Assembly (NCBI GenBank): GCA_903875555.1
Contig: CAIQWN010000045.1
Coordinates: 1,535 to 65,534, forward strand
Reading direction: 5' to 3'
Source: an uncultured bacterium
GTDB lineage: Bacteria; Patescibacteriota; Minisyncoccia; Phycocordibacterales; UBA5272
DNA: 64,000 nt
Under the pieces are notes generated by a model. It worked only from the letters and a program-made list of their open reading frames with translations. It did not search any database and was not told the DNA's origin. Made by a program: the position numbers and the translations under genes. Shown piece by piece: positions 12,893-57,087 of this stretch. Position 1 is the stretch's first letter, and each line of letters opens with the position of its first letter.

Positions 12893-12945
12893 AAAGGTAG
12901 TAATTGTAGAAAAATATGTTAGAATTAGATTTAGTTTAGATATTT

Positions 12946-13018
12946 CGGAGTGTGGTGTAACGGCTAACATTCTGGTTTTGGGTACCAGCGACTCAGGGTT
13001 CGAATCCCTGCACTCCGA
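12946..13018 (+). tRNA. tRNA-Pro (TGG)
   Basis: CGGAGTG acceptor start typical of tRNA-Pro, anticodon loop tTTGGGt, T-arm cagggttcgaatccctg. Confidence 0.8.
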
Positions 13019-13020
13019 CA

Positions 13021-13060
13021 AAATAACAAAAACCCTTCAAACGAAGGGTTTTTGTTATTT
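13021..13060 (+). terminator. 18-bp-stem intrinsic terminator after tRNA-Pro
   Basis: aaataacaaaaacccttc-aaac-gaagggtttttgttattt: a perfect 18-bp stem. Confidence 0.6.
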
Positions 13061-13111
13061 TGTCGACACTAGAAATTTTTCTATAAATAAGATATAATCT
13101 ACTGGTGATTT

Positions 13112-13182
13112 GCGGTGTTGGTTTAGTGGTAGAATGCCTGCCTTCCAAGCAGGAGACAAGAGTTCGATTCTCTTACGCCGCA
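13112..13182 (+). tRNA. tRNA-Gly (TCC)
   Basis: GCGGTGTTGGTTTAGTGGTAGAATGCCTGCCTTCCAAGCAGGAGACAAGAGTTCGATTCTCTTACGCCGCA. Confidence 0.85.
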
Positions 13183-13189
13183 CTAATTT

Positions 13190-41486: not shown

Positions 41487-42458
41487 GTGGTTTATAATGA
41501 GTCTATGGACATGACAAATATTAAAAATAGAATTCTTTTAGTGTGTGGATTTTTTGTAATAGTTTTAATAATTGTTTTTTTGTTTTCAAAAAACTTATTT
41601 GGTAGTAAAAAAGTGACGAACACTAATTTAGGACAACAGAATGATTTGTTGGTTATCCAAAAAATAGAGGGAGGGGATTTGAATGCCGACACCGACGGTG
41701 ACGGACTTAAAAATTGGGAAGAAGCTTTGCTGGGAACAAATCCTAATATTAAAGATAATCCAAATCAAAACATAGAAGGTTCGACTAGTCCTCAATTCAC
41801 TCCGATTGCAAAAGATGATCCATTAAATGATGTAAACAACCTAACGGCACAATTTTCAAAAAATGCATACACAATGGCTAGTTATTTAAACTCAAATGGT
41901 GTGAGTGATAATCAAACCATAGACGAAGTAAGTAAAGGTTTAATTTCTGGAGAAATAACAAAGTTGCTTATCAAAAAATACACAGTAGATGATTTAAAAA
42001 ATGTAGACAAAAACGATACAACAACCTTAAAAAATTATGGCAATCAACTAGCAAATTATGTTGATACCTCTTTCAAGATTATCTTAAACATAGACGAAGA
42101 AAAAATTCTAAACACTTACACTCAAAGTAAAGACGCAAAAGATCTTAGTAAATTAAAAACAAAAATTGATTCTTTGGAAACATTACAAAGTAATTTGAAA
42201 AATATGATCGTTCCAAAAGTTGCTGCCCAAAATCATTTGAATATTTTAAATAGCACAGCATCTTATATCGCTATTTTAAAAAATATAAACACCGTAAACA
42301 CAGACCCTATAAGAGCAGTTGTTGGATATAAAGCGCTTCCACAAATTCTTTTAAATTTCTTTAATAATTTTATTGATCTTAATAAATTCTTTAAAGAAAA
42401 TAAAGTTACTTTTTCAAATAATGAAAAATGGTTCGTGTTTATTAATAAAACAAAATAA
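41487..42458 (+). CDS. membrane-anchored secreted protein with a Ca-binding-like DTDGDGLKNWEE motif (T4SS-like locus)
   Basis: N-terminal signal anchor, D.DGDG..N.EE.L.GTNP thrombospondin-type-3-like repeat, Asn/Thr-rich. Confidence 0.4.
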   Translation: MVYNESMDMTNIKNRILLVCGFFVIVLIIVFLFSKNLFGSKKVTNTNLGQQNDLLVIQKIEGGDLNADTDGDGLKNWEEALLGTNPNIKDNPNQNIEGSTSPQFTPIAKDDPLNDVNNLTAQFSKNAYTMASYLNSNGVSDNQTIDEVSKGLISGEITKLLIKKYTVDDLKNVDKNDTTTLKNYGNQLANYVDTSFKIILNIDEEKILNTYTQSKDAKDLSKLKTKIDSLETLQSNLKNMIVPKVAAQNHLNILNSTASYIAILKNINTVNTDPIRAVVGYKALPQILLNFFNNFIDLNKFFKENKVTFSNNEKWFVFINKTK

Positions 42459-42464
42459 AATTAT

Positions 42465-44546
42465 ATGAAAAAAATTCTTCCAATTTTAATAATTACATTA
42501 TCTATGTCTGTTGGTTTTACACCAACAAAAGCACTTGGAGATATAGTTGAGTGTGTAAACTGTTCTGAGGTTGGTACACAAAATACTTCTTGGTTTGAAC
42601 AAAAACTACAATCTATTCAAGACAAAATGAACATGGGGGCTAACGTTGAAAAAAATGTAAAAAGTAGTATTACCGATCCAATAATGAACGCGCTTCTCTC
42701 TTCTGCGATAGACACAACAAAACAATCACTAAATAATTGGATACAAGGAGGTTTCCAAGGTAACCCGCTCGTAGCTATAAAACCAGAAACTTATTTAAAC
42801 AATGTTGGGAAGAATGTAATCAGAATTAAAATAGGGGAAATATCTAATTCTACAGACAAAAATAAGGGGACTGTTATAAAAAATATTGTTTATAGTGAAA
42901 GAGCAAAACAAAAAAGTATAACAGAGAGAACACAGTCTACACTCGCATCAGATATTAGACAAGACACCTGTACGGATTCAAATCTTAGTAACTACGCAAC
43001 CAAATCTATTACATCACTAGCGGATACTAATTCTCTTTTCTATAAAAACTGTATAAACAATGGAGGAAGTGCAGATACTTGTGATCAAGGTCGTGCTAAT
43101 TTAAACGCTGAAAGTGATGCAACACTTAGTAGTCGCATAGCAGCAAGAAAAAAACAGCTCTATGACAGTCTGTGTCCGCCAGATAAAGAACAAGCCCTGC
43201 TTGATTGTTACTATAATGATAGAAGTGGTCTATGTTTTTCTATGACTGCTTGGGTAGATACCAATCCAAACAACACAGTAGATGGACACACTGCCGAAGT
43301 TGCAAGACTTACAGACGAAGCTGCAGCTGCAAAAGTTGCTCTTGCTGCAAACGATACAAAAGATGGATACATTTCTCAAAAAGATTCTAACGGAAACATT
43401 ATTACACCAGCAGCCATCGTAGCAGAAACTGATAAAATAATTTCTACTGAGTCATCAAAAAGTGCTTTCTATAAAAGTGGTAGTGATTTAACTACTTCAC
43501 TTATTAATAAATTAATAAAAGGTGGACTTAGTTTTCTTAGTAAACAAACAAAGGGGACACTTGCTCAAAGTGGTATAAACAGTACTGTTTTAGATAATTT
43601 TGGTGATTTTGGTAACCTTAATGGGATAGATCTCAATAAAATATTACTATCGGGACAAACCCAAAGTACAGTAAAAGCAATTTATCCAGCAGGAAGCTGT
43701 GGTGCTGACGATCAATGTTATTCAGGATGTATACAAAGCGGACAAATTATTTATCCAGACGGAGTATGTGACACGGTGACGAGTTCTGGTGGTTATAGTT
43801 GTAAATCACAAGATTGTATAACAAAATGTTCCGGTATGATGCAACTTGTAAATAATATTTGTTCTATAAAACCAGCAAGCACCACAGGAAATGACTCTGG
43901 GTCAAACATGTTAGCAGATATGACAAACGATGAGCACGACGCTTTAATTAGTCCAATGCTTAATCGTTTAACATTAGACATCAAAACATTTTCAGCGATA
44001 GTGAATGCTTATGGCACATACACAAGTGATGTTGGTAATTATGTTAATCAAATACAAAACGCTGCTTTGGTTGGATGTTATACACAAATACAAAATGGTG
44101 CTGATACTTATAAAAACCAAGTTGATCAATATAAGAAAAAACAAGTAACCGATCATTACAACTCGCTACTATCAACTTACCAAGGAAATATAAGTGGTTG
44201 GAAATCAAATCTGGATAATCGTTTAAATTATTTAAAAAATATAAAAGCTGGTATAGACGACACAATAAATCAAAGCAATAATGGTATTTCTCGTGCAAAC
44301 AGCACTATTCAAAAATTAATCACATCACGAAACAAAGAAGAAATTAATACTACCTACTTCTCATATAATGACACAACTGGAAACTCTCCAACTGCTGGCT
44401 CTGAAGGTCTTGTTGAACCAAAAAAATTAGAATTGCAATATAATGTCTCAACTTATAACACAGACACTTTGGCACCGATGACTAATAGTTGTAATCAAAT
44501 TAAAAATACAATAGACCAAGATATGGCGAGTTTCATACAACATTAA
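42465..44546 (+). CDS. large secreted Cys-rich protein (T4SS-like locus)
   Basis: Signal peptide MKKILPILIITLSMSVGFTPTKALG; 693 aa with about 30 Cys and a Ser/Thr/Asn-rich composition. Confidence 0.45.
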   Translation: MKKILPILIITLSMSVGFTPTKALGDIVECVNCSEVGTQNTSWFEQKLQSIQDKMNMGANVEKNVKSSITDPIMNALLSSAIDTTKQSLNNWIQGGFQGNPLVAIKPETYLNNVGKNVIRIKIGEISNSTDKNKGTVIKNIVYSERAKQKSITERTQSTLASDIRQDTCTDSNLSNYATKSITSLADTNSLFYKNCINNGGSADTCDQGRANLNAESDATLSSRIAARKKQLYDSLCPPDKEQALLDCYYNDRSGLCFSMTAWVDTNPNNTVDGHTAEVARLTDEAAAAKVALAANDTKDGYISQKDSNGNIITPAAIVAETDKIISTESSKSAFYKSGSDLTTSLINKLIKGGLSFLSKQTKGTLAQSGINSTVLDNFGDFGNLNGIDLNKILLSGQTQSTVKAIYPAGSCGADDQCYSGCIQSGQIIYPDGVCDTVTSSGGYSCKSQDCITKCSGMMQLVNNICSIKPASTTGNDSGSNMLADMTNDEHDALISPMLNRLTLDIKTFSAIVNAYGTYTSDVGNYVNQIQNAALVGCYTQIQNGADTYKNQVDQYKKKQVTDHYNSLLSTYQGNISGWKSNLDNRLNYLKNIKAGIDDTINQSNNGISRANSTIQKLITSRNKEEINTTYFSYNDTTGNSPTAGSEGLVEPKKLELQYNVSTYNTDTLAPMTNSCNQIKNTIDQDMASFIQH

Positions 44547-44611
44547 ACACAAACAACGGTTCAGGGTACAGTAATTACTACAACCCTAGATAGCAACTAA
44601 GAATAAGAAAC

Positions 44612-44659
44612 AAAATAATACTAGTGGCGAAAGATTACTTTCGCCACTAGTATTATTTT
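44612..44659. terminator. perfect 22-bp-stem hairpin (aaaataatactagtggcgaaag-atta-ctttcgccactagtattatttt)
   Basis: Read directly between two operons of the T4SS-like locus. Confidence 0.55.
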
Positions 44660-44716
44660 GTTTCAACCAACCATTTCTCTAACATTTCCCTAATATTTTT
44701 ATGTTACAATAATGAA

Positions 44717-47485
44717 ATGAAAAAGGGTTTTATTTTCCTTCTTTTAGTCATATCTTTTGGTGTGTTTGGTGTGGGGAAGGTGAATGCAGATGCAACACTA
44801 GATACATTAAACGAGAAATTAGACTGGAATCGTGGTACCTATAATAGTTGTATACAAAATAGAGTCAAACTTGAAACTAACTGTGCTGCACAACTTACTG
44901 CTTTTACTACAGCATATAACAATGTTTTAAATTATGATGGTGTGTCTGCGTCTTTGAAAGACACTATGTCTATGTCTCTAAAAACTTACACTGACTGTAT
45001 GGATCGTAACAAACAAGATATCAGTAAATGCCAAAACGAACTTAACCATCTTCAAAATGTTAACACTGCTATTAATAATGTAGAAGGAACAAATAATGCG
45101 CCTAAAGATATCTATGCTGACTGTAACAATAAAACGGGAGCAGAGGCCTCGTCATGTAGAGCAAACGCTCTCGCTTTAGATTGTAGAAACAGTAATTACG
45201 GTAGTAATATTCCAAAAGCTTGCAAAACTATACTAGAAGGTCAAGACAATGCAACAAAGACACTACTCAACGAGCAATTAATAGCAAATAAAAAAAATAA
45301 TCCTTGTGGTGTAAGTTTTATTCCTGGCATAGACTCTTTTAACCTAATAGACTGTGCTGATTCTCTTGTTACTAAATTCATACAATCAACCCTAATCAAA
45401 TACGCACAAATCCTTCTTTATTTTGCCGCCATGACACTTAATGAATCTATACGTTTTGCAATTTTTGATGCTAACGGTAGTGTGTCTCATGTTATTACAG
45501 AACTATATCCTGTGTGGCAATTAATAAGACAACTGGTTGATTATTGTGTTTTGTTTGCGACTCTTTATCTTGGGGCAATGTACATTATGAATATTGAAGC
45601 AGGAAAACAATTTATAGAAAAGCATGTCCCTTGGCTTATTTTGTTCGCTTTGTTTGTTAACTTTTCATATCCAGCAACAAAGGCCATGAAAGACGTCTCT
45701 AATATTATTTCTCTAAAAATTTATGCTTCAACTGTTGGTGGGGAAGTGCTGAATGATAGATTTGGTGCGGGTAATATTATAATGAGTAGTCTTGGTTTGC
45801 CAAGCTTAGTTGGCACAGTAACAGACTCAGGAGGAACATTAGGAAGTAGTGGTGCTGATATTTTAAAAAACACAACAAGCACAATACCATCGCTACTAGT
45901 GTTTGTTATGATAATGTTTATTGCTTTTATTTTTATAATTATTGCTTTCCTAATGATTATGAGTAGTATTGTTTGTGTTTTTATAATTACAGTCTCTCCT
46001 ATTTTATTAATACAAAAAATAATACCAAAACTGGACAACCTTGCTTCAAAAATAAGAGAAGAATTTTTTAATGCTCTTGCCCTACCTGTTGTTTTTACTT
46101 TAATGTTTTTCTTAACAACACAAGTAATAACAAAACTTGCACCATCTCTTCCAAGTTCGTCAGGAGCAGGAGGGCCTACTCTTGTTGTACAAATATTTAA
46201 TGTGGTTTTGATGACTATTTCCTTATGGATAATGTTTAAGGCTACAAAATCTGTAAGCGGAACATTTGGTAAGACAGTAGAAGAATGGGGAGGGAAAGCA
46301 GCTGGTCTTGCCATGATGGCAACACCCGCCATGGCAATGAGAGCAACCGCAGGAAGACTGGGCGCAGGAATGTTAAATTCAAACACAGCTATTGGTGGAT
46401 GGATTGATAAAAACAGAGGAACAATGCTTGGAGACTCATTTCATAAACTTGGCGGAGGTCTTGCGACTAGCACTTTTGATATGAGAAATGCTAAAGGTAT
46501 GCGAGAGTTGGGAGGCATGGGAGGAATTAAAGAAATGGGAACAATGGGAAGTAAAGAAACATTTAAAAACACACTAGACACAAAAGGAAGAAAGCTCGCA
46601 AAAAATGTTGGAGAAACAAAGAGCGAAGAAGGGAAGGAGAGACTACTTAGAAATGTAGGGAAGTATTCTTTGATGTCTCACGAACAAGATTATCTTCGAG
46701 AACAATTAAATAAAAACACAAACATAGTAACTGGGGAGAAAAAACGTGCTAATTATGACAAATCTTCGGTAGGCGAACAATATAAAATATTAAGTGACGA
46801 CCAAGAAGAAGCAATGAAAATAAACAAAGGAATAAAGGATGGAAAAATTACTACAGCCGAAGCTTCAAACGGACCAAAAACAAATTCAGGTTACAAAATG
46901 GGCAATGTCGTTCTTCCGGAAGATAGAAAAAAAGAAGAAAATCAAAAAGAAAAACTAAATAAAAAAATAGAAAATATTTCAGAAGAATATAAAAAAGCAG
47001 CAGGGGAAGACAAACAAAAAATTTATGAAAAACATTCAAATTACAGCGACTCAAAAGACATCCACGAGGCCTTGCAAAACATAGATAGAAACGACACAAA
47101 AAACACTTTCGAATATGACAACAAGAACACATTCGAGGGAAATATAGGGACTGTGCACGATGAAGCAAACAAAGAACATGAAGAGAGAAGAAGAGAAGAG
47201 GTGCAAAATAAATATAACGAGCTTTCTGGTGAAAATAAACAAACATACCACGAATCTCTTTCTCCTGAGGACAAAGAGATGTTAAAATCAAATGACGAAG
47301 AAGAAGCGCATAACACTACTGATAGTTCTTGGGATATGAAGCAAGAAGCTAAACACGATTATCTTTCTCATTTACAAAAACTTCATAAAGAAAATGAATC
47401 AGTTAAAAAAGAAAGTGAAGACTTTGCAACAAAATTTGTAAAAGGAGCACCAAGCGAAAGAAACAGCTTCGAAAAAGCAGCTTAA
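44717..47485 (+). CDS. VirB6/TrbL-like (PrgH/TcpH-type) polytopic membrane protein with N-terminal secreted Cys-rich domain and C-terminal charged tail
   Basis: Signal peptide, ~180-aa Cys-rich extracytoplasmic domain, at least 6 TM helices, Gly-rich segment (GGMGGIKEMGTMG), then a K/E-rich ~300-aa tail. Confidence 0.5.
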   Translation: MKKGFIFLLLVISFGVFGVGKVNADATLDTLNEKLDWNRGTYNSCIQNRVKLETNCAAQLTAFTTAYNNVLNYDGVSASLKDTMSMSLKTYTDCMDRNKQDISKCQNELNHLQNVNTAINNVEGTNNAPKDIYADCNNKTGAEASSCRANALALDCRNSNYGSNIPKACKTILEGQDNATKTLLNEQLIANKKNNPCGVSFIPGIDSFNLIDCADSLVTKFIQSTLIKYAQILLYFAAMTLNESIRFAIFDANGSVSHVITELYPVWQLIRQLVDYCVLFATLYLGAMYIMNIEAGKQFIEKHVPWLILFALFVNFSYPATKAMKDVSNIISLKIYASTVGGEVLNDRFGAGNIIMSSLGLPSLVGTVTDSGGTLGSSGADILKNTTSTIPSLLVFVMIMFIAFIFIIIAFLMIMSSIVCVFIITVSPILLIQKIIPKLDNLASKIREEFFNALALPVVFTLMFFLTTQVITKLAPSLPSSSGAGGPTLVVQIFNVVLMTISLWIMFKATKSVSGTFGKTVEEWGGKAAGLAMMATPAMAMRATAGRLGAGMLNSNTAIGGWIDKNRGTMLGDSFHKLGGGLATSTFDMRNAKGMRELGGMGGIKEMGTMGSKETFKNTLDTKGRKLAKNVGETKSEEGKERLLRNVGKYSLMSHEQDYLREQLNKNTNIVTGEKKRANYDKSSVGEQYKILSDDQEEAMKINKGIKDGKITTAEASNGPKTNSGYKMGNVVLPEDRKKEENQKEKLNKKIENISEEYKKAAGEDKQKIYEKHSNYSDSKDIHEALQNIDRNDTKNTFEYDNKNTFEGNIGTVHDEANKEHEERRREEVQNKYNELSGENKQTYHESLSPEDKEMLKSNDEEEAHNTTDSSWDMKQEAKHDYLSHLQKLHKENESVKKESEDFATKFVKGAPSERNSFEKAA

Positions 47486-47494
47486 AAAAATAAT

Positions 47495-48220
47495 ATGAGC
47501 ACAGAAATATTAAATAAAATAAAAGACTCATTTATAAAAGCTTCTCCGGAAATAAGGGGAGTAATTTTGAGTGATGATTTAAATAATGTTGCCAAAGAAC
47601 TTGGTGAAAAATATAAAATTGGAATAAATCTTTATGTTGATCTAAAAAATATCACCATACTTGCATTGCTTGGAGAAATAAAAATGGAGGATCTTGCAAA
47701 TGAAATTAAAACAAAAATTGAAGTTGATGATAAAACAGCCGATGAAATAATTAAATACTTAGATCAAACTATTTTTGAAAAAGCTCGTATCTCTGTTGGG
47801 ACAAGTGAAGCAAAGCCAGAAACAAAACCCGTTGTTATTAAAGAAATAAAAATTGTAAATGATCCAATAAAAGCAAAACTACGCGAGCAATTAATGAATC
47901 ATCCTTTACCAAAAAATGAAAACACTGGAAAGAAAACAACTGGGGACGGCAATAGAGAGCATTTACTAGAAAAATTAAAAACTCTTTCAGAAATACCAAG
48001 CGACGAAAACATTGCTTCTAGATTAGAAAAAATTAGAGAACAAATAAAAACAATAAATTCTGAAACAAAAAAAACTGACTCTCCAGAATTAAAAGAGGAA
48101 GCTGTTGTTATGTTAGAAAAAGAAAGTGGAAGTGCTGTTGAAAATAAAATAAAAACTGCTCCATATAGTAAGCCACCAATTTCTTACAATATAGACCCCT
48201 ATAGAGAAGTTACTGAATAA
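47495..48220 (+). CDS. hypothetical cytoplasmic protein (T4SS-like locus)
   Basis: 241 aa, hydrophilic, no motif; starts 10 nt after the VirB6-like stop. Confidence 0.35.
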   Translation: MSTEILNKIKDSFIKASPEIRGVILSDDLNNVAKELGEKYKIGINLYVDLKNITILALLGEIKMEDLANEIKTKIEVDDKTADEIIKYLDQTIFEKARISVGTSEAKPETKPVVIKEIKIVNDPIKAKLREQLMNHPLPKNENTGKKTTGDGNREHLLEKLKTLSEIPSDENIASRLEKIREQIKTINSETKKTDSPELKEEAVVMLEKESGSAVENKIKTAPYSKPPISYNIDPYREVTE

Positions 48221-48325
48221 TATTTGACATTTCTATAAAAAATAGTAGTATAACGATTGGGCTTTAAATTTTAAAGACTGCTTTTTCAAATAACCCAGAT
48301 GTAAAACCAAACCGAGGGGGGTGAC

Positions 48326-49066
48326 ATGCCGAAAGACAATGTTATACCTCTCTTTGGGAGAGGTAAACCACAAGTACGTTCGACAAACAATAGAGATGAA
48401 CAAATAACTACAGCGTTAAGCAATCAACGATCTTTTAATTCTCTTGACGCTGCGTTTAGAATAGTAACCTCGAGCTCGTCACGATTAGATCTGGACGAGA
48501 CTGGACTTGGTACTGTAAAAATACTAAGCGAATCCACACTCGGGAAAATTCTTGATTTTTCATCAGAAAGGAGTAGGTTTGCTATTTTATGCGAACTTTG
48601 GAGTTTAAAAGAGTTCTTTACGATAGACGAGTCCAACAAACTTCTTGACTGTTTAAAAAGCAATGTACAACCAGACGAGAAGTTGACCAAAAAGTTTTTC
48701 GATAGTGATGTTTTTGCACAACTCTTGTGGTTAATGAAAAAACCAGGGTCTCATTTTCCTGTGGAGCGTTGTATTTCTGCAAACGAGATGAGAATTGATG
48801 TTTGCGACAAATTTGAAATAGCTTGTTACCAAACAACTCTTTATTACGAAAGAATGAACGGAGGAGTTAAAAACCCTGAAGATTTGTTTGTTAGCTCCTT
48901 GCTAGACTGGAACATTAAAAAAAGAATTCTTGCTGGCTTGGAACACAGTAGCTCTCCATTCATAGACGAAAAAACGTACCCTTCAGTGCAGTCTCAACTA
49001 AAAAACAACAAGGATGTGGTGCTGTCAGTAAGAAGCAACTACTTTATTGTTACAAAGAAACCCTGA
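48326..49066 (+). CDS. hypothetical protein with atypical (higher GC) composition
   Basis: 246 aa; a visibly GC-richer codon set (ccg, cga, ctc, gag), a strong gagggggg SD and a GC-rich terminator (cgccacctg...caggtggcg) at 49066-49100. Confidence 0.4.
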   Translation: MPKDNVIPLFGRGKPQVRSTNNRDEQITTALSNQRSFNSLDAAFRIVTSSSSRLDLDETGLGTVKILSESTLGKILDFSSERSRFAILCELWSLKEFFTIDESNKLLDCLKSNVQPDEKLTKKFFDSDVFAQLLWLMKKPGSHFPVERCISANEMRIDVCDKFEIACYQTTLYYERMNGGVKNPEDLFVSSLLDWNIKKRILAGLEHSSSPFIDEKTYPSVQSQLKNNKDVVLSVRSNYFIVTKKP

Positions 49067-49149
49067 CCGCCACCTGAATACCACAGGTGGCGATATTTTT
49101 ATGTGAACTCTCCACTTTCTAAGACTCTCTTTCTTGTTATACTATAATA

Positions 49150-49587
49150 ATGCAATTTAGGGTTCCACAATTCATTGATGTTGAAGATAAAATAATCGGC
49201 CCACTTACATTAAAACAGTTTGCTTATATTTTAGGTGCTGGTGGTTTTGCTTTTATTATTTGGACTTTTATAAGCATAAAAATTCTAGCGGTTATACTTA
49301 TAATTCCTCTTTCTGGATTATTTTTGTCGTTTGCTTTTCTAAAAGTAAACGGTAGGCCATCTATAGATGTTTTGGAACATGCTTTTAAATATTTTACTAA
49401 TGCTAAAATTTATACATGGAAACAACCAATACCAGAAACAAGAATAAAACAACCTGTTTCTCATTCAGAAAAAGCTGTTGCTGATATATCAAGAGAACTA
49501 TTAACAAAAAAAGTTGATTCTAACAAACTACACGATATATCATTTGGTCTTGATGTGTTAGACCGTAACCCACAAGAAAAAGAATAG
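49150..49587 (+). CDS. PrgI/TcpE (VirB3-like) family small membrane protein
   Basis: VPQFIDVEDKIIGPLTLKQFAYILGAGG followed by two TM helices matches the PrgI family N-terminal pattern. Confidence 0.45.
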   Translation: MQFRVPQFIDVEDKIIGPLTLKQFAYILGAGGFAFIIWTFISIKILAVILIIPLSGLFLSFAFLKVNGRPSIDVLEHAFKYFTNAKIYTWKQPIPETRIKQPVSHSEKAVADISRELLTKKVDSNKLHDISFGLDVLDRNPQEKE

Positions 49588-49600
49588 ACCGACTCCCTCT

Positions 49601-49662
49601 GTCATCCCTGCGAAGGCCGTCCACAGGTATCGACTCCTAATCAGTCGATCAGGGATCTGGTG
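49601..49662. repeat. palindromic dispersed repeat, copy 5 (long variant with internal 30-bp insert that is itself palindromic)
   Basis: gtcatccctgcgaagg...atcgactcctaatcagtcgat...cagggatctggtg. Confidence 0.65.
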
Positions 49663-49672
49663 TATTTTTGAA

Positions 49673-49957
49673 CTATAAATCAAAATATAAATCTCTCCAT
49701 TGTAAATTTGTCTTTTCAATTAATTTTACTTTCCATTCTCTTTTCCATGCTTTAAGTTGTTTTTCTTTTTTAATAGCACTTTCAATATTTTCTGTTTGTT
49801 CATACCAAACTAAATTAGTTATGTTGTATTCTTTTGTAAAACCTTCAACTACTTTTTCTTTGTGTTCATAAACCCTTCTTTTTAAATCATTGGTAACACC
49901 CACATATAAAGTTCCGTATCTTTTACTAGCTAAAATATATACACAGCATTGTTTCAT
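49673..49957 (-). CDS. small GIY-YIG nuclease family protein
   Basis: Starts at MKQCCVYILASKRYGTLYVGVTNDLKRRVYEHK...GFT (GIY-YIG core). The ORF-track N-terminal extension to 50068 runs through repeat copy 4. Confidence 0.7.
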   Translation of the reverse strand: MKQCCVYILASKRYGTLYVGVTNDLKRRVYEHKEKVVEGFTKEYNITNLVWYEQTENIESAIKKEKQLKAWKREWKVKLIEKTNLQWRDLYFDL

Positions 49958-49983
49958 TTTTATATTGTAACAAAATAATAAAC

Positions 49984-50012
49984 ACTGGATCCCTGCCTTC
50001 GCAGGAATGACA
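49984..50012. repeat. palindromic dispersed repeat, copy 4 (reverse orientation)
   Basis: cactggatccctgccttcgcaggaatgac. Confidence 0.8.
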
Positions 50013-50126
50013 AAAAGAAAAGCAGGGATAACACCCAGAGATTCCAGTAAAACACTTACGACATTCAATTCACAAGAAAAAGAATAAATGAAAAGTTTTT
50101 AAAATTAAATAGGATATAATAAAGGT

Positions 50127-50768
50127 ATGAATCCTTCATCAGCAACACAACAATTTGTTCCAATAGAAAAAATTCGTGACGGTATAATTACTTTAAAAAA
50201 TGGAGAGTTGCGTGCTATCCTTATGACCAATTCACTTAACCTGTCTTTAAAAGGTCAAGACGAGCAACTGGCGATACTTTCTCAATTTCAAAATTTCTTT
50301 AACTCACTAGAGTTTCCTGTTCAATTATTTATTCAATCAAGAAGATTAAATATTAAACCTTATATAACATTACTTGAAGAAAGAGAAAAAGAGGTTCGTG
50401 AAGATTTAATTAAATTACAAATCAGAGAGTATAATAAATTTATAAAATCATTCACGGACAACGCAAATATTATGACAAAACATTTTTTTGTTACTGTTCC
50501 ATATTTAGCACCAACAACTAGTGGCGGGGGAATGTTTCCTTTTGGAGATAAAAAAGATGTTATGTCTGAAGAAAACAGAAACTTTGAAACAGCTAGAATG
50601 CAACTAGAACAAAGACTTTCTGTTGTATCACAAGGTCTTTCACGTTTTGGTGTTCGTTCACAAAAATTAAACACTGAAGAGGTGGTAGAATTATTTTATA
50701 AAATATTTAATCCAAGCGAACAAGATCACTCGGCTCCTAAATTAACTAAGGAAATGATGGAAAAATAA
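50127..50768 (+). CDS. VirB4/TraE-family N-terminal domain, encoded as a separate ORF
   Basis: ITLKNGELRAILMTNSLNLSLKGQDEQLAILSQFQNFFNSLEFPVQLFI resembles the N-terminal domain of Gram-positive VirB4 (TraE/PrgJ). It ends at TAA 4 nt before the ATPase ORF, which is in the +1 frame. Confidence 0.5.
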   Translation: MNPSSATQQFVPIEKIRDGIITLKNGELRAILMTNSLNLSLKGQDEQLAILSQFQNFFNSLEFPVQLFIQSRRLNIKPYITLLEEREKEVREDLIKLQIREYNKFIKSFTDNANIMTKHFFVTVPYLAPTTSGGGMFPFGDKKDVMSEENRNFETARMQLEQRLSVVSQGLSRFGVRSQKLNTEEVVELFYKIFNPSEQDHSAPKLTKEMMEK

Positions 50769-50772
50769 ACAT

Positions 50773-52593
50773 ATGGGATTATTAGATTTTTTAAATACAA
50801 CAAAAAAAGAAAGTAGTATCAGGCCAATTCTTCCAGAACAGGTTTATCAAATGGCGGAAATGCAACTGAAAGACATAATCGCCCCTTCAGCTCTTGGTGT
50901 TACCCCAAAGTTACTCAACCTAGGAACAACAGTGGTTCGTAATTATTTTGTTATTTCTTATCCTCATTATTTAACAGATAACTGGTTAAGCCCAATCATT
51001 AACCTCGATAAAGTTTTTGATATTGCTATACATGTTATACCTCTCGACACAGGTAAGGTTATGCGTGAATTCCAAAGAAAAGTTGCTGAGGTGGAAAGTC
51101 AAATAATGCAAAGAGAAGAAAAAGGACTTGTTCGTGATCCACAACTTGATATTGCTTATAAAGACCTCGAAGATTTACGTGATGGACTTACTCAAGCTCA
51201 GGAAAAAATGTTTGATGTGTCTCTTTATATTTCTATTTATGGAGCAGATGAAAATGAAGTAGAAAAAGTAGAAAACGAAATAAAAACAATACTAGAAAGT
51301 GGTATGGTTTATGTAAAACCTGCACTCTTCCAACAAGAAGCTGGTTTCCTTAGTACTATCCCTCTAGGAAATGATATCTTGCAAATAAAAAATAAAATAA
51401 ACACGTCTCCTCTTTCTTCTTTCTTTCCTTTCGTTTCTTTCGATCTCTCTTCCGATAGTGGAATTCTCTATGGTATAAATCGTCACAACGGATCGCTTGT
51501 TTTATTTGATAGATTTTCACTAGAAAACTACAATTCTATTATTTTTGCTAAATCAGGTTCTGGTAAAAGTTATTCTACTAAACTCGAAATACTAAGAACT
51601 TTAATGTTCGACACCGAAGTAATTATTATAGACCCAGAAAAAGAATATGAGTATCTAGCGGAATCAGTAGGGGGAAGATATTTTAATATTTCGTTGACGT
51701 CGGATCACCACATCAATCCATTTGATCTACCTGCACCAAATGAGGATGAGTCTCATTCTGAAGTATTACGATCAAACATCATCGGTCTCGTTGGTTTGTT
51801 TCGTGTGATGCTTGGAGGATTAACACCGGAAGAAGACGCAATCATTGATCAAGCTTTAACTGAAACCTATGCTCTAAAAGACATCACAGGAGACACTGAC
51901 TTTACAAAACTCGACCCACCACTACTTTCGGATTTCGAAATGGTTTTGGGTGGAATAGATGGATCAGAAAACATTCTTTCTCGTCTTGCAAAATACACAA
52001 AAGGAACGTGGTCTGGTTTCATTAATCAAGCATCTAATGTTGATATAAACAAAAAATTAGTTTGTTTTTCTATTCGTGACATGGAAGACGAACTTAAGCC
52101 TGTGGCGATGTATTTAATTACACATTATATTTGGAACGCTGTTAGAAAAAACATTAAAAAGAGATTACTCGTGGTGGATGAAGCTTGGATTATGATGAAA
52201 AATGAAGACACTGCTTCTTTCCTATTCGGACTTGCTAAGCGTGGAAGAAAATATTTCTTAGGGCTTGCCACAATTACTCAAGACGTTGGCGACTTCCTTC
52301 GTTCTCCATATGGTTTACCAATTATCACCAACTCTTCTATACAAATCTTATTAAAACAATCTCCTTCTTCTATCGACGTGGTTCAAAAAACTTTCGGACT
52401 AACAGACGAAGAAAAATATTTACTTCTAGAGTCGAACGTCGGGGAGGGAATATTCTTTGCTGGACTTAAACACGTTGCTATAAAAATTATTGCCTCTTAC
52501 ACAGAAGATCAAATTATCACTTCTGACCCTTCACAATTACTCAAAATTAAAAAAGAAAAAGATGAACTTAGTAATATAGAAACAACAAAATGA
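50773..52593 (+). CDS. VirB4/TraE/CagE family type IV secretion ATPase (C-terminal ~600 aa)
   Basis: Walker A FAKSGSGKSYST, Walker B LLVVDEAW, TITQDV motif. Confidence 0.8.
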   Translation: MGLLDFLNTTKKESSIRPILPEQVYQMAEMQLKDIIAPSALGVTPKLLNLGTTVVRNYFVISYPHYLTDNWLSPIINLDKVFDIAIHVIPLDTGKVMREFQRKVAEVESQIMQREEKGLVRDPQLDIAYKDLEDLRDGLTQAQEKMFDVSLYISIYGADENEVEKVENEIKTILESGMVYVKPALFQQEAGFLSTIPLGNDILQIKNKINTSPLSSFFPFVSFDLSSDSGILYGINRHNGSLVLFDRFSLENYNSIIFAKSGSGKSYSTKLEILRTLMFDTEVIIIDPEKEYEYLAESVGGRYFNISLTSDHHINPFDLPAPNEDESHSEVLRSNIIGLVGLFRVMLGGLTPEEDAIIDQALTETYALKDITGDTDFTKLDPPLLSDFEMVLGGIDGSENILSRLAKYTKGTWSGFINQASNVDINKKLVCFSIRDMEDELKPVAMYLITHYIWNAVRKNIKKRLLVVDEAWIMMKNEDTASFLFGLAKRGRKYFLGLATITQDVGDFLRSPYGLPIITNSSIQILLKQSPSSIDVVQKTFGLTDEEKYLLLESNVGEGIFFAGLKHVAIKIIASYTEDQIITSDPSQLLKIKKEKDELSNIETTK

Positions 52594-53570
52594 TTAAACC
52601 AACTGGTAAAAAAATAATATTCTCACTTTTTATTTTTATATTTTTAAATAGTTTCTCTTTTGCTCAGTTAACTGACACAATTGAAGTGTCTCCAGAAAAC
52701 CCCGGAGCTTTTCAAGATGTTACTCTCACTATTAGATCTTATGCTTTTGATGTTGATACTGTCTCTATAACTTGGGACATTAATAATAAAGTTGTTTTAA
52801 GTGGTGTTGGTGAAAAAAAATTATTAACAAAAACTGGTGGTGTTGGATTACAAAAAATAGTCCATGTTATAGCAATGAAGGGCAGTCAAAAAGTTTTTGA
52901 TCAAGTAATTTCACTAAACCCTCAATCTGTCGATTTAATCTGGGAATCAAAAGAAAGTTATGTTCCTCCTTTTTATGAGGGTAAGGCTCTGCCAGGGGAA
53001 AGCTCTCTCGTTTCTGTTGTGGCACTACCAAACTTTATTTATAATGGAAAAACAGTAGATCCAAAAACTATTTCTTATGCTTGGTATTTAAACGATGAAA
53101 TAATAAAAGACGCTAGTGGTTTTAATAAGCAGAATTTAATAATGAATCTTGATTATCTTTCAGAAAAAAATATAATCAGGGTTGCGGCACGTGACCAAAA
53201 CGGAAACATTGCTGAAAAAGAAATTGTTATTGCCCCAGAACAAATAGACCCTGTTTTTTATTTAAACGATCCACTTTTTGGAATAGATTTAAATAGGGCA
53301 ATACAAGACAGATTTGAAACAAATAAAGAATTTACTTTAAACTTTGTACCATATTATTTATCAACAAAAAATATTCCTGATGACCAAATAAAATCTTCTT
53401 GGTCTCTAGACGGGCTTCCTTTAACAAACATAAAAAATAATTCTATTTCTTTAAAACCATTAGCCGACAGTTACGGTTCAAAAGTTTTAAGAATAAACAT
53501 AGAAAACACAAGTAGAATATTGCAAGAAATAAAAACTAGTTTGGAAATAATTTTTGACACAAGAAAATAA
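52590..53570 (+). CDS. secreted protein (T4SS-like locus)
   Basis: Signal peptide MIKPTGKKIIFSLFIFIFLNSFSFAQ; its ATG overlaps the VirB4 stop (ATGA). Confidence 0.45.
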   Translation: MIKPTGKKIIFSLFIFIFLNSFSFAQLTDTIEVSPENPGAFQDVTLTIRSYAFDVDTVSITWDINNKVVLSGVGEKKLLTKTGGVGLQKIVHVIAMKGSQKVFDQVISLNPQSVDLIWESKESYVPPFYEGKALPGESSLVSVVALPNFIYNGKTVDPKTISYAWYLNDEIIKDASGFNKQNLIMNLDYLSEKNIIRVAARDQNGNIAEKEIVIAPEQIDPVFYLNDPLFGIDLNRAIQDRFETNKEFTLNFVPYYLSTKNIPDDQIKSSWSLDGLPLTNIKNNSISLKPLADSYGSKVLRINIENTSRILQEIKTSLEIIFDTRK

Positions 53571-53571
53571 C

Positions 53572-54438
53572 ATGAACACAACAGGATCAAAAGAAAAATA
53601 CACATTAATGGTGCCTGAGCTAAATCAGTTTCTTGGGACAGAAACAAATAAAACACCCCTTGGTTTCAACACCACCGACCTAAGCAATACCGGTTGGATG
53701 AATTTTTTAATTTGGATGCTTTATATATCTATTTTTATATTTGCAGCATACAGATCTGTTGTTGTCGCCGGACTATTTGTAACAGGTATCCCAGAGAAAA
53801 GAAAAGAGGGTAAAGAGGCCTTAAAAAAAGTTGTTCTCGGTGTTATCTTTGTGCTAGCTATGTCACCACTTCTTAATTGGTTAAGACCGTCAATGCAATT
53901 AAATACCTTAGTTTTTCCTGGAACAAAAATATTTTCTCCGCAAATATCTACGCAAACAAACCAAGACCAAACAATAATCACTGACCCTGGGACATCACCA
54001 ACAGTAGTTATTGGTGATACAACAAACAGACAAACACTCAAAAACGCCGGAATAAACATCAAAAAAGACAACTGTACTTTTGCTCAGTGGCAAGAACTAA
54101 AACCTTCCTGTACGAGCTTAGAGGAACTTCCACAAGAAACTGTGAACATGCTTATTGATTTAAAAAATAAATGTAAATGTAGCATACAAATAACAGGAGG
54201 AACAGAGCCAGGCCACTCAACACACGGAAGAAGCAGATACCCTGTTGATTTACACTACGACACAAATTCTGATTTAAATAAATATCTTACTGGGCCAGAC
54301 CTAAACAAAAACCCTTATTTAAGTTTTTGTTATAACACTTATGGTTCAGTCGACGGCTATGTTTTTTGTGATGAAAAATCAACAGACAGACACTGGCATG
54401 TTTGTAACTGGAATAAAAACAGCTGCACAAACGGTTAA
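53572..54438 (+). CDS. membrane protein with pilin-like TM hairpin and Cys/His-rich C-terminal domain (possible cell-wall hydrolase in the PrgK/TcpG position)
   Basis: Two TM segments separated by PEKRKEGKEALKK, then a domain with 10 Cys and the motifs GHSTHGRSRYPVDLH and RHWHVC. The first ATG is at 53572; the ORF-track start at 53554 is a TTG. Confidence 0.4.
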   Translation: MNTTGSKEKYTLMVPELNQFLGTETNKTPLGFNTTDLSNTGWMNFLIWMLYISIFIFAAYRSVVVAGLFVTGIPEKRKEGKEALKKVVLGVIFVLAMSPLLNWLRPSMQLNTLVFPGTKIFSPQISTQTNQDQTIITDPGTSPTVVIGDTTNRQTLKNAGINIKKDNCTFAQWQELKPSCTSLEELPQETVNMLIDLKNKCKCSIQITGGTEPGHSTHGRSRYPVDLHYDTNSDLNKYLTGPDLNKNPYLSFCYNTYGSVDGYVFCDEKSTDRHWHVCNWNKNSCTNG

Positions 54439-54459
54439 TCTCTCTGTTATACTTAATCT

Positions 54460-55779
54460 ATGGATGAAAACTTTCGTAAAAAAATAATTATCTTTTTTAT
54501 AGTAGCGGTAATTTTTGCTGTTTCTGTTTTAATTTATTTTTTCTTTATAAAAAAACCTACGGGTGTCCCTGTGTATACAGATAAAACAAAAACTGTTTTA
54601 AACAATGAAGGAAAAACCTATAAGAAACCACAGCAGGGAAACAACCAAGACGGGAACCAAAATAATTATACAGAAATACAGCAACCTGAGGAGAAAAAAC
54701 TTTCTAAAATCTGGGACAAACCAACGGCTGGTTTTTCTTTTGTTGATCAAACAATAATTACAACAGCAACGACCAGTAAAATAATTAAAGGAACTTCGAC
54801 TGTTGTTATTGTTCAAAATAAATCAACCTCTACAAAAATTTACTTTGTAGACAGCATGACTGGTTTTATTTACTCTTATGACCTTAAAAAGAAAAACATC
54901 TATCAGATAACAAACACAACCATTCCGTCTGTTCATGATGCTTATATTTTTAATAATGGTGGAGAGGTTTTAATGAGATATGCAGATGGGGATGTAATTA
55001 AATCATTAACTGCACAAATACCAACCGTTAGTGAAGGAAATTCACCTTTGTCTTTGGTTGATATTTCTTATTTACCAAACGATGTTTCTTCTGTTTCTAC
55101 AAATTTGTTTGATAAAAATCTAAGCTATGTTTTAACAAATAAAAACGGGAGTACTATCAAAACCATTTCAAACAAAACAACAAACGGTCTCTACTCTTCT
55201 TTGTTTTCTGGTTGGAATATTTCCTACGGGGGGAACACTGTTCATTTAACAACCAAACCCTCATCTTACATATCTGGAACAAGCTTAAACTTAAATTCAG
55301 GTGAAATTCTTCTAAGAGATAAAACTGGGCTAAACATTCTTCCTTCAAAAACAGATGAAAATATTTTTGGAAGCTTCTTTTCTAGTTTGGGTATAAAAGA
55401 TTTTATAATGTCTACAAAAACTGGTGATGTTTCATACCTGACTTTTCAAACGCTGTCAGAAAAATGTGAGTGGGGGATGAAGGATAGATTTATTTTGTGT
55501 GGTGTTCCACAACTAATAGAAAACAATAACGACGGCTTACCTGACGCGTGGTACAAAGGAAAAATGACTTTTAACGATAATCTTTATATTAAGAATCTTA
55601 AAGATTCAAAAGAAAGTGTGTTTTTTAGATTTGAATACGAGACCGATGAAAAAATAGATATGATTAAACTAAAACTAAACCAAACAGAAAATTATTTAGG
55701 TTTTATAAACAAAAAAGATAAAAACTTTTGGTTAATGAAAACAGACTATTTAACAACAGTTGACAGTGTTGTTGATTAA
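54460..55779 (+). CDS. membrane-anchored extracytoplasmic protein (T4SS-like locus)
   Basis: Signal anchor IIIFFIVAVIFAVSVLIYFFFI; 439 aa, Thr/Asn-rich. Confidence 0.4.
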   Translation: MDENFRKKIIIFFIVAVIFAVSVLIYFFFIKKPTGVPVYTDKTKTVLNNEGKTYKKPQQGNNQDGNQNNYTEIQQPEEKKLSKIWDKPTAGFSFVDQTIITTATTSKIIKGTSTVVIVQNKSTSTKIYFVDSMTGFIYSYDLKKKNIYQITNTTIPSVHDAYIFNNGGEVLMRYADGDVIKSLTAQIPTVSEGNSPLSLVDISYLPNDVSSVSTNLFDKNLSYVLTNKNGSTIKTISNKTTNGLYSSLFSGWNISYGGNTVHLTTKPSSYISGTSLNLNSGEILLRDKTGLNILPSKTDENIFGSFFSSLGIKDFIMSTKTGDVSYLTFQTLSEKCEWGMKDRFILCGVPQLIENNNDGLPDAWYKGKMTFNDNLYIKNLKDSKESVFFRFEYETDEKIDMIKLKLNQTENYLGFINKKDKNFWLMKTDYLTTVDSVVD

Positions 55780-55782
55780 GAT

Positions 55783-56502
55783 TTATTTTTTCTCTTTTTT
55801 AATTCTATCTTTAATATAAACATCTTGTAAAAAAGAAAGAATGTTGTTTGTTGTCCAATAAAGACCTAGCGCCGCTGGTAAAACGTATGATGAAACACCA
55901 ATTATCACAGGCAAAACGTAAAGCATTTGGACTCGCATTGATTTCATAAAATGATCTTGAAAATTTTCTTCCTTGTTTTCTTTTTTGTTCGCCACCATAC
56001 TAGACGTCTGTCTTCTTGCAAGTATATAAGCTGTTATGCCGGTAGAGATCGCAATAAAAATATTCTTCTTTGTAACATCAAGAATACCGAAAGCTTGTGT
56101 GTGTAATATTTCTGGAAAAGAAACAAAAGAATAAATTGAACTACCGTCGAACTTCATTCCTTTTGAAAAAACAAAGTATAGGGCGATAAACACTGGTATT
56201 TGTATAAGCATAGCAATAAGCGATGACAGTGGATTTATTTTTTCTCTTTTATAAACCTCCACTAGTTTGCGAGAAAGTTCTTGCGGTTTGTCTTTGTGGT
56301 TATCCCTAATTACTTTTATTTCATCTTCAACAGCCTTCATCAAATGTTGTGTTCTTGTTGCTTTTAAATTAATAGGCAAAAGAATTGTTTTTACTGTGAC
56401 AGTAACCAAAACAATAGACGCCCCTATATCATGGAGGGGAACGATCTGTAAAAACAAAACTAATAGATTATAAACTGGTTCGTAAAAAATTATATGAAAC
56501 AT
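55783..56502 (-). CDS. yidC: membrane protein insertase YidC (short Gram-positive type)
   Basis: 239 aa, 5 TM helices with a conserved C-terminal region. Confidence 0.85.
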   Translation of the reverse strand: MFHIIFYEPVYNLLVLFLQIVPLHDIGASIVLVTVTVKTILLPINLKATRTQHLMKAVEDEIKVIRDNHKDKPQELSRKLVEVYKREKINPLSSLIAMLIQIPVFIALYFVFSKGMKFDGSSIYSFVSFPEILHTQAFGILDVTKKNIFIAISTGITAYILARRQTSSMVANKKENKEENFQDHFMKSMRVQMLYVLPVIIGVSSYVLPAALGLYWTTNNILSFLQDVYIKDRIKKEKK

Positions 56503-56504: not shown

Positions 56505-56819
56505 TTATTGTATTTTAACAGACATTTCTAAAATGTTTAACTTTAATTTTTCATAAGGCAAATACAAAACCTCTTTTTTTGGGTAAAAAATTATAAAACA
56601 AGAGTCTTTTAATTTTATTTCTCTGAAAATATTAAATATTTTTCTTTTGATTTTGTTTCTGTCTACCGCTCTTTTTGATATTTTTTTAGAAACAACAACA
56701 GCACACTTTGTTTTTGAAGACAAAAGATAGCCAATATCTAAATATTGACCTCTTAAGATTTTTTTATTTGAGATTGCGGAAAAATCCTTTTTAGAGAGCC
56801 TTTCCGATTTTTTTAACAT
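56505..56819 (-). CDS. rnpA: ribonuclease P protein component
   Basis: 104 aa, basic, RLSKKDF...; its position between rpmH and yidC is canonical. Confidence 0.8.
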   Translation of the reverse strand: MLKKSERLSKKDFSAISNKKILRGQYLDIGYLLSSKTKCAVVVSKKISKRAVDRNKIKRKIFNIFREIKLKDSCFIIFYPKKEVLYLPYEKLKLNILEMSVKIQ

Positions 56820-56957: not shown

Positions 56958-57087
56958 AACGAGTATTCTATATTAAAACCAAACATAAATCAAATCATGT
57001 GTTTTTGTCTTTAACACAAGTCAATTTGCTTAACATGTTGTCTAGTTGATTGCTTTTTTGAGAAGTGTATACTTAAAAACAATTACT

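Follow-up and report, generated by a model that had tools for sequence, protein, structure and literature searches.

A probable Paceibacteria-type type IV secretion locus beside dnaA in an uncultured bacterium, with a two-gene VirB4 and a pilin-type hairpin joined to a predicted wall enzyme

Introduction

Patescibacteria account for a large part of bacterial diversity and spend their lives attached to other microbes. Here we report on a 64,000-nt stretch of DNA from an uncultured bacterium of this group (contig CAIQWN010000045.1; the whole stretch is called the window), in which the region 41487-55779 probably encodes the Patescibacteria-clade type IV secretion system (T4SS) in its Paceibacteria form, a vertically inherited, origin-proximal derivative of the monoderm mating-pair-formation machinery MPF_FATA (CD1110/Mbov_0397-like) that is no longer linked to conjugation. 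Very few machines have been demonstrated to be essential for the epibiotic lifestyle, and the T4SS is among them (Wang et al. 2023, PMC10633639). The locus is of an already described kind (Wang et al. 2023; Quinonero-Coronel et al. 2025, PMC12102498) and is not itself new, and the window provides a clean and complete instance of how the Paceibacteria locus is laid out, with its parts listed gene by gene. What is added, in the form of testable hypotheses, is a universally split VirB4, a VirB4 that is more conserved than DnaA, a fusion of a pilin-type hairpin with swappable enzymes and a membrane-anchored beta-propeller; these observations help to tell probable host-facing proteins from those of the conserved motor.

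VirB4 of Patescibacteria forms a monophyletic clade nested in MPF_FATA and is present in 2,407 of 3,035 genomes, with genes for TrsD, VirB3, VirB6 and PF18895 pilins near virB4; in Paceibacteria the locus adjoins dnaA, dnaN, rnpA and ksgA, and M23/LysM-containing 'VirB1 homologues' are associated with virB4 (PMC12102498). According to the same study, a VirB8-like protein is rarely found outside the class ABY1, only 109 relaxases occur in the 3,035 genomes, and genes of VirD4-like type IV coupling proteins (T4CP) are common in Patescibacteria genomes but mostly distant from virB4. In Saccharibacteria, transposon sequencing of Southlakia epibionticum showed that epibiotic growth requires T4SS genes, and the same work noted that the T4SS lacks recognisable coupling proteins and relaxases (PMC10633639); the T4CP is non-essential in S. 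epibionticum, whereas the T4SS genes are essential (PMC12102498). A 2025 review reports that this essentiality is independent of comEC, the deletion of which ends competence while viability is kept, and that type IV pili provide adhesion in Saccharibacteria (PMC12857230). A 2026 preprint describes tubular structures, possibly T4SS pili, at the parasite-host interface, proposes feeding on host RNA and ties VirB4 to macromolecule transfer (bioRxiv 10.64898/2026.06.21.733656).

Layout and conservation of the locus

An earlier reading of the window (the original prediction) had seen in this region a chromosomally fixed, minimised T4SS-like apparatus of Gram-positive type, not a conjugative element, made up of eleven co-directional genes in few tight units. 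The eleven genes are confirmed as open reading frames (ORFs) on the + strand at 41487-55779; a twelfth gene on the opposite strand, encoding a GIY-YIG nuclease, had been overlooked, and the interval 41487-44546, which had been taken for a single protein, holds two ORFs, A and B. The genes of the locus and its right flank are as follows (lengths in amino acids, aa).

A, 41487-42458, + strand, 323 aa: bitopic membrane protein, first gene of the conserved locus
B, 42465-44546, + strand, 693 aa: Cys-rich protein with a signal-peptide-like N-terminus
C, 44717-47485, + strand, 922 aa: putative VirB6-like polytopic membrane protein
D, 47495-48220, + strand, 241 aa: protein with a C-terminal D-P-Y(-R-E) motif
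E, 48326-49066, + strand, 246 aa: lineage-specific ORFan
F, 49150-49587, + strand, 145 aa: PrgI/VirB3-like protein with two transmembrane (TM) segments
GIY-YIG nuclease gene, 49673-50068, - strand: between F and H
H, 50127-50768, + strand, 213 aa: TrsD-like, homologue of the VirB4 N-terminus
I, 50773-52593, + strand, 606 aa: VirB4 ATPase
J, 52590-53570, + strand, 326 aa: weak matches to immunoglobulin (Ig)-like domains
K, 53554-54438 (alternative start ATG 53572), + strand, 294 aa: VirB2-like hairpin and predicted LAS zinc-peptidase domain
L, 54460-55779, + strand, 439 aa: TM helix and predicted beta-propeller, last locus gene
yidC, 55783-56502, - strand: PF02096 (1.4e-39), right flank
rnpA, 56505-56819, - strand: recognised from its translation, right flank
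dnaA, 57046-58428, + strand: recognised from its translation, right flank

This layout is like that of the Patescibacteria-clade T4SS (PMC12102498; PMC10633639, SEML1_0006-0019) in its monoderm-type VirB4 with a TrsD-like neighbour, its PrgI/VirB3, putative VirB6-like and PF18895 genes and the lack of a relaxase or T4CP gene nearby, and the position by dnaA, dnaN, rnpA and ksgA is exactly that of the Paceibacteria locus (PMC12102498). The left flank consists of uvrD and ksgA and the right flank of yidC, rnpA, dnaA and dnaN, the yidC-rnpA-dnaA flank being the mark of an origin-proximal position. The GC content is about 0.32 throughout the window and 0.31-0.34 in the locus, the same as in its flanks.

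The locus was compared by tblastn and ORF maps with the best 80 of at least 497 relatives of I, which were obtained in a scan with one genome per species; 79 of these 80 contigs are labelled as Patescibacteria/candidate phyla radiation or as unclassified bacterium, and one was binned as Nitrospira. The gene order uvrD-ksgA-A-B-C-D-F-H-I-J-K-L-yidC-rnpA-dnaA recurs in nearly all 80 Patescibacteria species (yidC in 57/80, dnaA in 54/80), so that both the proposed synteny around a VirB4 homologue and the proposed chromosomal site beside yidC and dnaA are recovered in the relatives. Because the gene order and the housekeeping flanks are the same and GC is uniform, the locus is shown, as judged by synteny and composition, to be vertically inherited and fixed.

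The proteins differ widely in conservation. I is 70-86% identical across the 80 species and 29-36% identical to the best plasmid homologues listed, an indirect indication that it may belong to the Patescibacteria clade of VirB4. Median identities among the relatives are 72.5% for I (VirB4), 55.3% for DnaA, 53.7% for KsgA, 53.4% for H, 39.2% for F (PrgI) and 35.3% for YidC, and range from 23.5 to 30.6% for A, B, C, J, K and L; in all loci that could be compared (54/54), VirB4 identity exceeded DnaA identity. The pattern reads as that of a strongly constrained cytoplasmic motor with fast-evolving exposed parts. Together with the essentiality of the T4SS in S. epibionticum (PMC10633639), the ranking of VirB4 above DnaA speaks for the earlier view that the apparatus is probably central to a reduced-genome lifestyle.

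Pfam was scanned with 36 window ORFs, including all those of at least 500 aa and the whole locus with its flanks; nine mid-size ORFs (RNase H, ClpP, RsmE, trigger factor, pyrophosphatase, NusA, TIM, PGK and DnaN) were recognised from their translations only. No T4CP, relaxase or VirB11 domain was found among the 36 ORFs, as the original prediction had held, and no integrase or relaxase lies at the borders of the locus; the sole tyrosine recombinase of the window is Xer-like and lies 10 kb away. The absence of a coupling protein is true for this window only. With fixed synteny in nearly all 80 species, flank-like GC and local conjugation genes absent, the description as a chromosomally fixed, minimised and non-conjugative apparatus is supported.

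The split VirB4 motor

The VirB4 ATPase had been placed in a single gene at 50127-52593, which proved to be two ORFs, H and I, in different frames. The assignment of the 50773-52593 product (I) to the VirB4 family is borne out by NCBIfam model NF045971 (conju_CD1110; 368.6 bits, cutoff 325, model positions 182-733), and the motifs reported earlier can be read in its translation (Walker A SGSGKS, Walker B LLVVDEAW, and TITQDV). I also matched Pfam P-loop_TraG (PF19044, 1e-27) and, below the equivalog cutoff, the Mbov_0397 model (2.8e-75), and could be aligned to the C-domain of Thermoanaerobacter VirB4 (PDB 4ag5, 7e-40) and to TrwK (2e-8). It covers the RecA-like ATPase domain and that remainder of the VirB4 N-domain which H does not supply.

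H matched positions 101-230 of NF045975 (VirB4_plasma, Mbov_0397; 6.9e-12) and positions 1-119 of NF045971 (1.9e-8), and a profile of H gave no credible match among PDB sequences. On these alignments it is clearly homologous to the first ~120 residues of VirB4, encoded as a protein of its own. A small homologue of the VirB4 N-terminus also stands just upstream of the ATPase in pGO1/pSK41 (TrsD and TrsE; PMC12102498), but H reached only 21 bits (2.4e-4) against a cutoff of 200 with the TrsD model of that type (NF041427), and the N-terminal part of a CD1110/Mbov_0397-type VirB4 is a better description of it than TrsD.

At the junction, the TAA stop of H is followed by a gap of 4 nt and then by I in a different frame. 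Because H and I are separate ORFs in 80/80 relatives (with TAA or TAG stops and mixed frames), the split is a real two-gene arrangement, neither an error nor a pseudogene; adjacent pairs of a TrsD-like and a VirB4 gene also occur on Firmicutes megaplasmids. A recoded stop or a frameshift within VirB4 was likewise considered, and is ruled out by the TAA stop, the differing frames and the split in all relatives.

Membrane partners of the motor

The PrgI/VirB3-like two-TM protein proposed at 49150-49587 was confirmed: F matched PF12666 (PrgI; 3.6e-9, 37.5 bits, gathering score 27), has TM segments at residues 23-41 and 42-60, and is encoded directly upstream of H in 78/80 relatives.

For the proposed VirB6/TrbL-like protein at 44717-47485 (C), the layout was recovered as described, whereas support for membership of the VirB6 family is weak. 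C has a signal-peptide-like N-terminus, 10 Cys within residues 1-215, five further TM segments as judged crudely by hydropathy (relatives have 6-8) and a tail of ~360 aa (residues 561-922) of which 37% is charged. It matched TrbL (PF04610) below the cutoff (E = 0.0047) and NF046089 (CD3337/EF1877) weakly (1.3e-4); among 37 homologues, TrbL was matched by four (best 5e-5), ICE_Mbov_0396_TM by three (best 1e-7) and MMCAP2_0566 by two. Comparison of a C profile with PDB sequences gave no credible match. The position upstream of PrgI is conserved among relatives, and position, topology and sub-threshold matches weakly suggest a VirB6-like polytopic protein.

D has no predicted TM segment, and no Pfam, NCBIfam or other family was found for it. 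Its N-terminal ~100 aa are conserved, and in an alignment of 34 positional homologues with an overall mean column identity of 17%, D234, P235 and Y236 of the C-terminal DPY(RE) are invariant. This suggests that the C-terminal DPYRE may be a docking peptide for some partner.

A pilin-type hairpin joined to a predicted wall enzyme

K, in which a pilin-topology protein had been predicted (53572-54438), narrowly matched PF18895 (T4SS_pilin; 26.9 bits, threshold 26.6), and the family was matched by 47 of 55 positional homologues (best 8e-9) and TrbC/VirB2 (PF04956) by four; the pilin-like Mbov_0395 model was reached below its equivalog cutoff (0.028). In an AlphaFold2 model built from nine sequences (whole-model predicted local distance difference test, pLDDT, of 63.7; C-domain mostly 65-94), helices 47-76 and 80-115 form a hairpin of residues ~45-115. 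A Cys-rich C-terminal domain follows at ~157-284, with His221, His224, Asp232, His280 and His282 as ligand candidates. Sixteen aligned C-domains share five invariant columns, H-H-D...H-H, in the pattern TGGTE..H..tHxxGxxVD ... HWH, and we take such an H-x(n)-D / H-x-H pattern to be the signature of LAS zinc peptidases.

The only PDB sequence-profile match of the C-domain was to the Sonic hedgehog N-domain, across the zinc motif (E = 0.14), and the predicted fold resembles that domain, VanX and MepA. With the LAS (MD clan) peptidases VanX/VanY and MepA and the Hedgehog N-domain, K thus has in common the motif H-x(6-7)-D plus H-x-H and the predicted fold; it differs from them in being Cys-rich and in standing behind a T4SS pilin-type hairpin, and its peptidase activity is a prediction. 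K itself reaches the cutoff of no M15 or VanY model in Pfam. Individual homologues match Peptidase_M15_4, M15_3 and HH_signal. These matches are modest, and the strongest support comes from comparison: proteins at the same position in relatives carry VanY (8; best 2e-11), M15_4 (2.8e-18), YkuD (3; best 1.7e-15), SLT (1.6e-9) or NlpC/P60 (4.7e-7). The search that named these modules gave no per-protein order relative to the hairpin; with a local hidden Markov model, the hairpin was found in 61 of 63 K-position proteins and the window-type LAS domain in 20, in 20/20 on the C-terminal side of the hairpin. In neither the window nor 65 related loci was a free hairpin ORF of less than 180 aa detected.

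Because the LAS motif and fold are present and VanY, YkuD, SLT or NlpC/P60 occur at orthologous positions, K is read as a VirB2-like hairpin carrying a swappable peptidoglycan enzyme, and it is the probable cell-wall hydrolase of the apparatus, in keeping with the hydrolase position assigned to it earlier. In the Saccharimonadia locus, small pilins are encoded separately in an array, and peptidase and lysozyme have genes of their own; in the window and the 65 related loci, by contrast, no free small pilin was detected near virB4, and a single pilin-domain protein is fused to a peptidoglycan enzyme. Eight of the 65 loci encode a second pilin-hairpin protein, which hints at local duplication of the hairpin-enzyme gene. 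One such K paralogue, of 342 aa with 14 Cys, follows gene L in locus L003 (14963-15991).

A literature search for a link between Patescibacteria, VirB2 and a peptidoglycan hydrolase brought up nothing beyond the two T4SS studies cited above, and no statement on a hairpin-enzyme fusion was found in PMC12102498 outside its supplements. A bolder extension, doubtful and put forward as speculation, is that the sole VirB2-like 'pilin' near virB4 in Paceibacteria would be a carrier that displays interchangeable peptidoglycan modules (LAS peptidase, VanY, L,D-transpeptidase, lytic transglycosylase or NlpC/P60) and, if it polymerises under VirB4, would form an enzyme-studded fibre cutting or re-stitching the host wall where the cells touch. 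If this were true, the swapping of modules and the fast divergence of K (27% median identity versus 72.5% for VirB4) would represent adaptation to different host walls, and published counts of 'VirB2 pilins' in Paceibacteria would in part count wall enzymes. The modular fusion of pilin hairpin and wall enzyme in Paceibacteria is the one lead worth following.

Exported and surface-type proteins

The remaining conserved proteins bear features of export or membrane anchoring. A has a TM segment at 9-27 and an extracytoplasmic, Asp-rich Ca-binding motif (DxDxDG..DWEE); it matched Pfam TSP3_bac above the cutoff (2.4e-6), and a profile of 26 homologues found only calmodulin Ca-loops in the PDB (8e-4). 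It was found by tblastn in 26/80 relatives, adjoining ksgA. B has 18 Cys and a signal-peptide-like N-terminus and matched no Pfam or NCBIfam family; in 21 of 22 relatives one ORF of 314-816 aa stands in its place, and it is possibly a surface or adhesin component. A profile match of B to a coiled-coil adhesin chimera in the PDB was judged biased and set aside.

J, present in 76/80 relatives, has a signal-peptide or anchor-like N-terminus (TM 7-25). Its homologues gave weak per-member Pfam matches to BiPBP_C (3), aBig_2 (2), PKD_6 (2) and Ig_3 (2), and its profile matched Hoc and Fab weakly in the PDB. L, present in 63/80 relatives, starts with a TM helix, from which a disordered linker (37-75) leads to a beta-propeller (81-430) that is predicted to face outward. 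The AlphaFold2 model of L from 63 sequences has a mean pLDDT of 89 and a predicted template modelling score (pTM) of 0.79, and Foldseek searches of the PDB retrieved generic WD40/TolB-like propellers (E of ~1e-8 to 4e-9); some L homologues carry PD40 or PG_binding_1. The earlier remark that most components lack recognisable annotation was overstated for H, K and L. Neither the propeller of L nor the Ig-like J nor the Ca-binding A is named in PMC12102498 or PMC10633639, and the terms M15, hedgehog and propeller are absent from PMC12102498 outside its supplements.

Comparison with systems outside Patescibacteria

The trio of families known from the T4SS of Mollicutes integrative conjugative elements (ICE) is matched here by K (Mbov_0395), members of the C family (Mbov_0396) and H and I (Mbov_0397), all matches being below the equivalog cutoffs. 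Going by the NCBIfam family names, these Mollicutes systems are parts of integrative conjugative elements, and VirB4 is a single polypeptide in the Mbov_0397 model (894 positions), in contrast to two genes in the window.

I passes the cutoff of the CD1110 family, and among Firmicutes systems of the CD1110 type, pCF10 (prgH-I-J-K-L) has the same order of VirB6 position, PrgI, VirB4 and wall hydrolase as the window, as the original prediction had pointed out. Unlike the window, pCF10 has a single-chain VirB4 of 796 aa, PcfC/VirD4, a relaxase and LPXTG adhesins, and its hydrolase PrgK, a large protein, is annotated as a lysozyme without pilin annotation, whereas K combines a pilin hairpin with a predicted peptidase. 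One-to-one equivalence with pCF10 parts is supported only for PrgI and PrgJ.

A similar minimal module is present on a Pontibacillus sp. megaplasmid typed as non-mobilizable (NZ_CP062975, 351801-361354; L082), which encodes a pilin-like protein, a 779-aa protein, a small protein, a separate TrsD-like protein, VirB4 and an M23 metalloendopeptidase of 1050 aa. Relaxase-less versions of the machine may thus exist beyond Patescibacteria. The Pontibacillus module adjoins flagellar genes, and no relaxase is annotated nearby.

Interpretation and alternatives

The annotations show a putative membrane core of C, F, H and I, around which A, B, J, K and L, proteins with features of export or membrane anchoring, are grouped. 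In the mechanism that we consider, H would bridge PrgI and the VirB4 hexamer at the membrane, and VirB4 would power the assembly of an envelope-spanning channel or of a short pilus or fibre through C. The enzyme module of K would open or remodel peptidoglycan at the site, and A, B, J and L would be the wall-spanning, outward, host-contacting part. Such a machine would support epibiotic life through the passage of protein or nucleic acid between epibiont and host at their contact, and not through conjugation of the cell's own DNA.

Several points weigh against this reading. The function is read from sequence, and no substrate or effector was recognised; the VirB6 membership of C comes only from sub-threshold matches, position and topology. 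No VirB8-like component (PrgL/TcpC, NTF2-fold) was recognised when profiles of A and J were compared with the PDB, which we take to hold VirB8-like structures, and J with PrgL by hhalign. No profile similarity was seen between C and PrgH (hhalign probability of 3.6%), between H and the N-terminus of PrgJ, or between J and PrgL. The hairpin of K may polymerise into a pilus or may be just a membrane anchor. The window shows 64 kb, and a VirD4-like protein may be encoded elsewhere in the genome. Lastly, the essentiality data come from Saccharimonadia, another class with another locus layout.

The rivals rank in the order import, pure adhesion and conjugation with distant genes. An import machine, with ComB/Ced-like uptake of host DNA, RNA or macromolecules that feed a cell unable to make nucleotides, is the foremost of them, and we hold it to be unlikely. 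It would suit the reduced genome, the competence genes ComEC and ComM in the window and the host-RNA feeding proposal with its tie of VirB4 to macromolecule transfer (bioRxiv 10.64898/2026.06.21.733656), and in NCBIfam I partially matches CedB (7e-10) and CedD, which import DNA in archaea; but the CedB match is a short P-loop stretch (38 bits against a cutoff of 700), no nucleic-acid-binding component was recognised in the locus, and in S. epibionticum the T4SS is essential although loss of comEC ends competence without loss of viability (PMC12857230). Import overlaps with the preferred reading, from which it differs only in transport direction and substrate. That VirB4 merely assembles a surface fibre or anchor complex for adhesion and wall remodelling, with no substrate translocated, appears improbable. 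The many surface-type parts (Ca-binding motif, weak Ig-like matches, beta-propeller and Cys-rich protein) would fit it, as would the lack of a local coupling ATPase and the pilin-like hairpin fused to wall enzymes, in some species the synthetic L,D-transpeptidase YkuD. Type IV pili, however, already give adhesion in Saccharibacteria (PMC12857230). The putative VirB6-like channel protein and PrgI are, moreover, conserved alongside VirB4, and in known systems a VirB6-type protein and PrgI form the translocon.

A conjugative or mobilising apparatus with its coupling protein, relaxase and oriT elsewhere in the genome is very improbable. The closest families are conjugation ATPases (CD1110 and the Mbov_0397 ICE), and VirD4 homologues are common in Patescibacteria and often distant from virB4 (PMC12102498), but against this stand the position fixed between ksgA and yidC/dnaA in nearly all 80 species, the borders free of integrase and relaxase, the scarcity of relaxases in Patescibacteria and the non-essential T4CP beside essential T4SS genes in S. 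epibionticum (PMC12102498). The split VirB4, in two frames with an internal stop, and two lineage-specific insertions, a GIY-YIG element and an ORFan, could also mark a pseudogenised former mobile element in decay. This is effectively refuted because the split is present in 80/80 species with conservation of both halves (median identities of 53% and 72.5%); the remaining genes are all intact ORFs, and both insertions are intergenic, the GIY-YIG insertion regenerating the PrgI stop codon. Decay is thus excluded, and the Paceibacteria-type T4SS without a conjugation link remains the preferred reading.

Insertions and other features of the window

Three further features lie within the locus.

Terminator-like hairpin, 44614-44657, both strands: perfect palindrome with a 20-bp stem, followed by a T-run, between B and C
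Terminator-like hairpin, 49068-49092: GC-rich, after E
GIY-YIG insertion, 49571-50086, - strand: ~500 bp, with 16-bp direct repeats and 18-nt inverted repeats

The arms of the palindrome are AATAATACTAGTGGCGAAAG...CTTTCGCCACTAGTATTATT. Both hairpins are compatible with a sub-operon picture and fit the few tight units originally described; a promoter scan gave 57 sites against 63.7 expected, that is, at or below the level of shuffled sequence.

The GIY-YIG gene (Pfam GIY-YIG, 3.5e-14) lies in an insertion edged by a perfect 16-bp direct repeat, CACAAGAAAAAGAATA, a duplicate of the prgI end by which the stop codon of PrgI is regenerated, and inverted repeats of 18 nt are located within it at 49600-49617 and 49995-50012. 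Relatives do not have the insertion at this site, and a 78%-identical GIY-YIG gene is found at another intergenic site of the same locus (~8359) in one of them (L007). The insertion appears to be a small mobile element that duplicated its target site and is no part of the machine.

E gave no tblastn match in the 80 relatives, and 1.84 billion representative proteins contained a single, distant relative of it (29% identity, 1.9e-10). It has signals of its own, a promoter-like site at 48224-48251 (the window's promoter scan not being above shuffles) and the hairpin at 49068-49092. E looks like a cassette inserted between D and PrgI and is probably outside the core machine; as an ORFan absent from all 80 relatives, it was ruled out as a T4SS part.

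A secreted protein with LysM and Peptidase_M23 domains is encoded 5 kb upstream of the locus (35295-36275, - strand) and, by analogy with the 'VirB1 homologues' of Paceibacteria (PMC12102498), may be a second wall hydrolase of the system. ComM is encoded at 33603-35153. ComEC is present as two ORFs ~1.1 kb apart (4012-4995 and 6128-7636, both - strand), one with a metallo-beta-lactamase domain and the other with DUF4131 and Competence domains, and a VTT/DedA-family gene (4783-5616, + strand) overlaps the gap between them. Rfam and tRNA scans of the window found only four tRNA genes, distant from the locus; these are Arg-TCG, Gly-GCC (- strand), Pro-TGG and Gly-TCC, in a stretch without long ORFs at 11992-13183.

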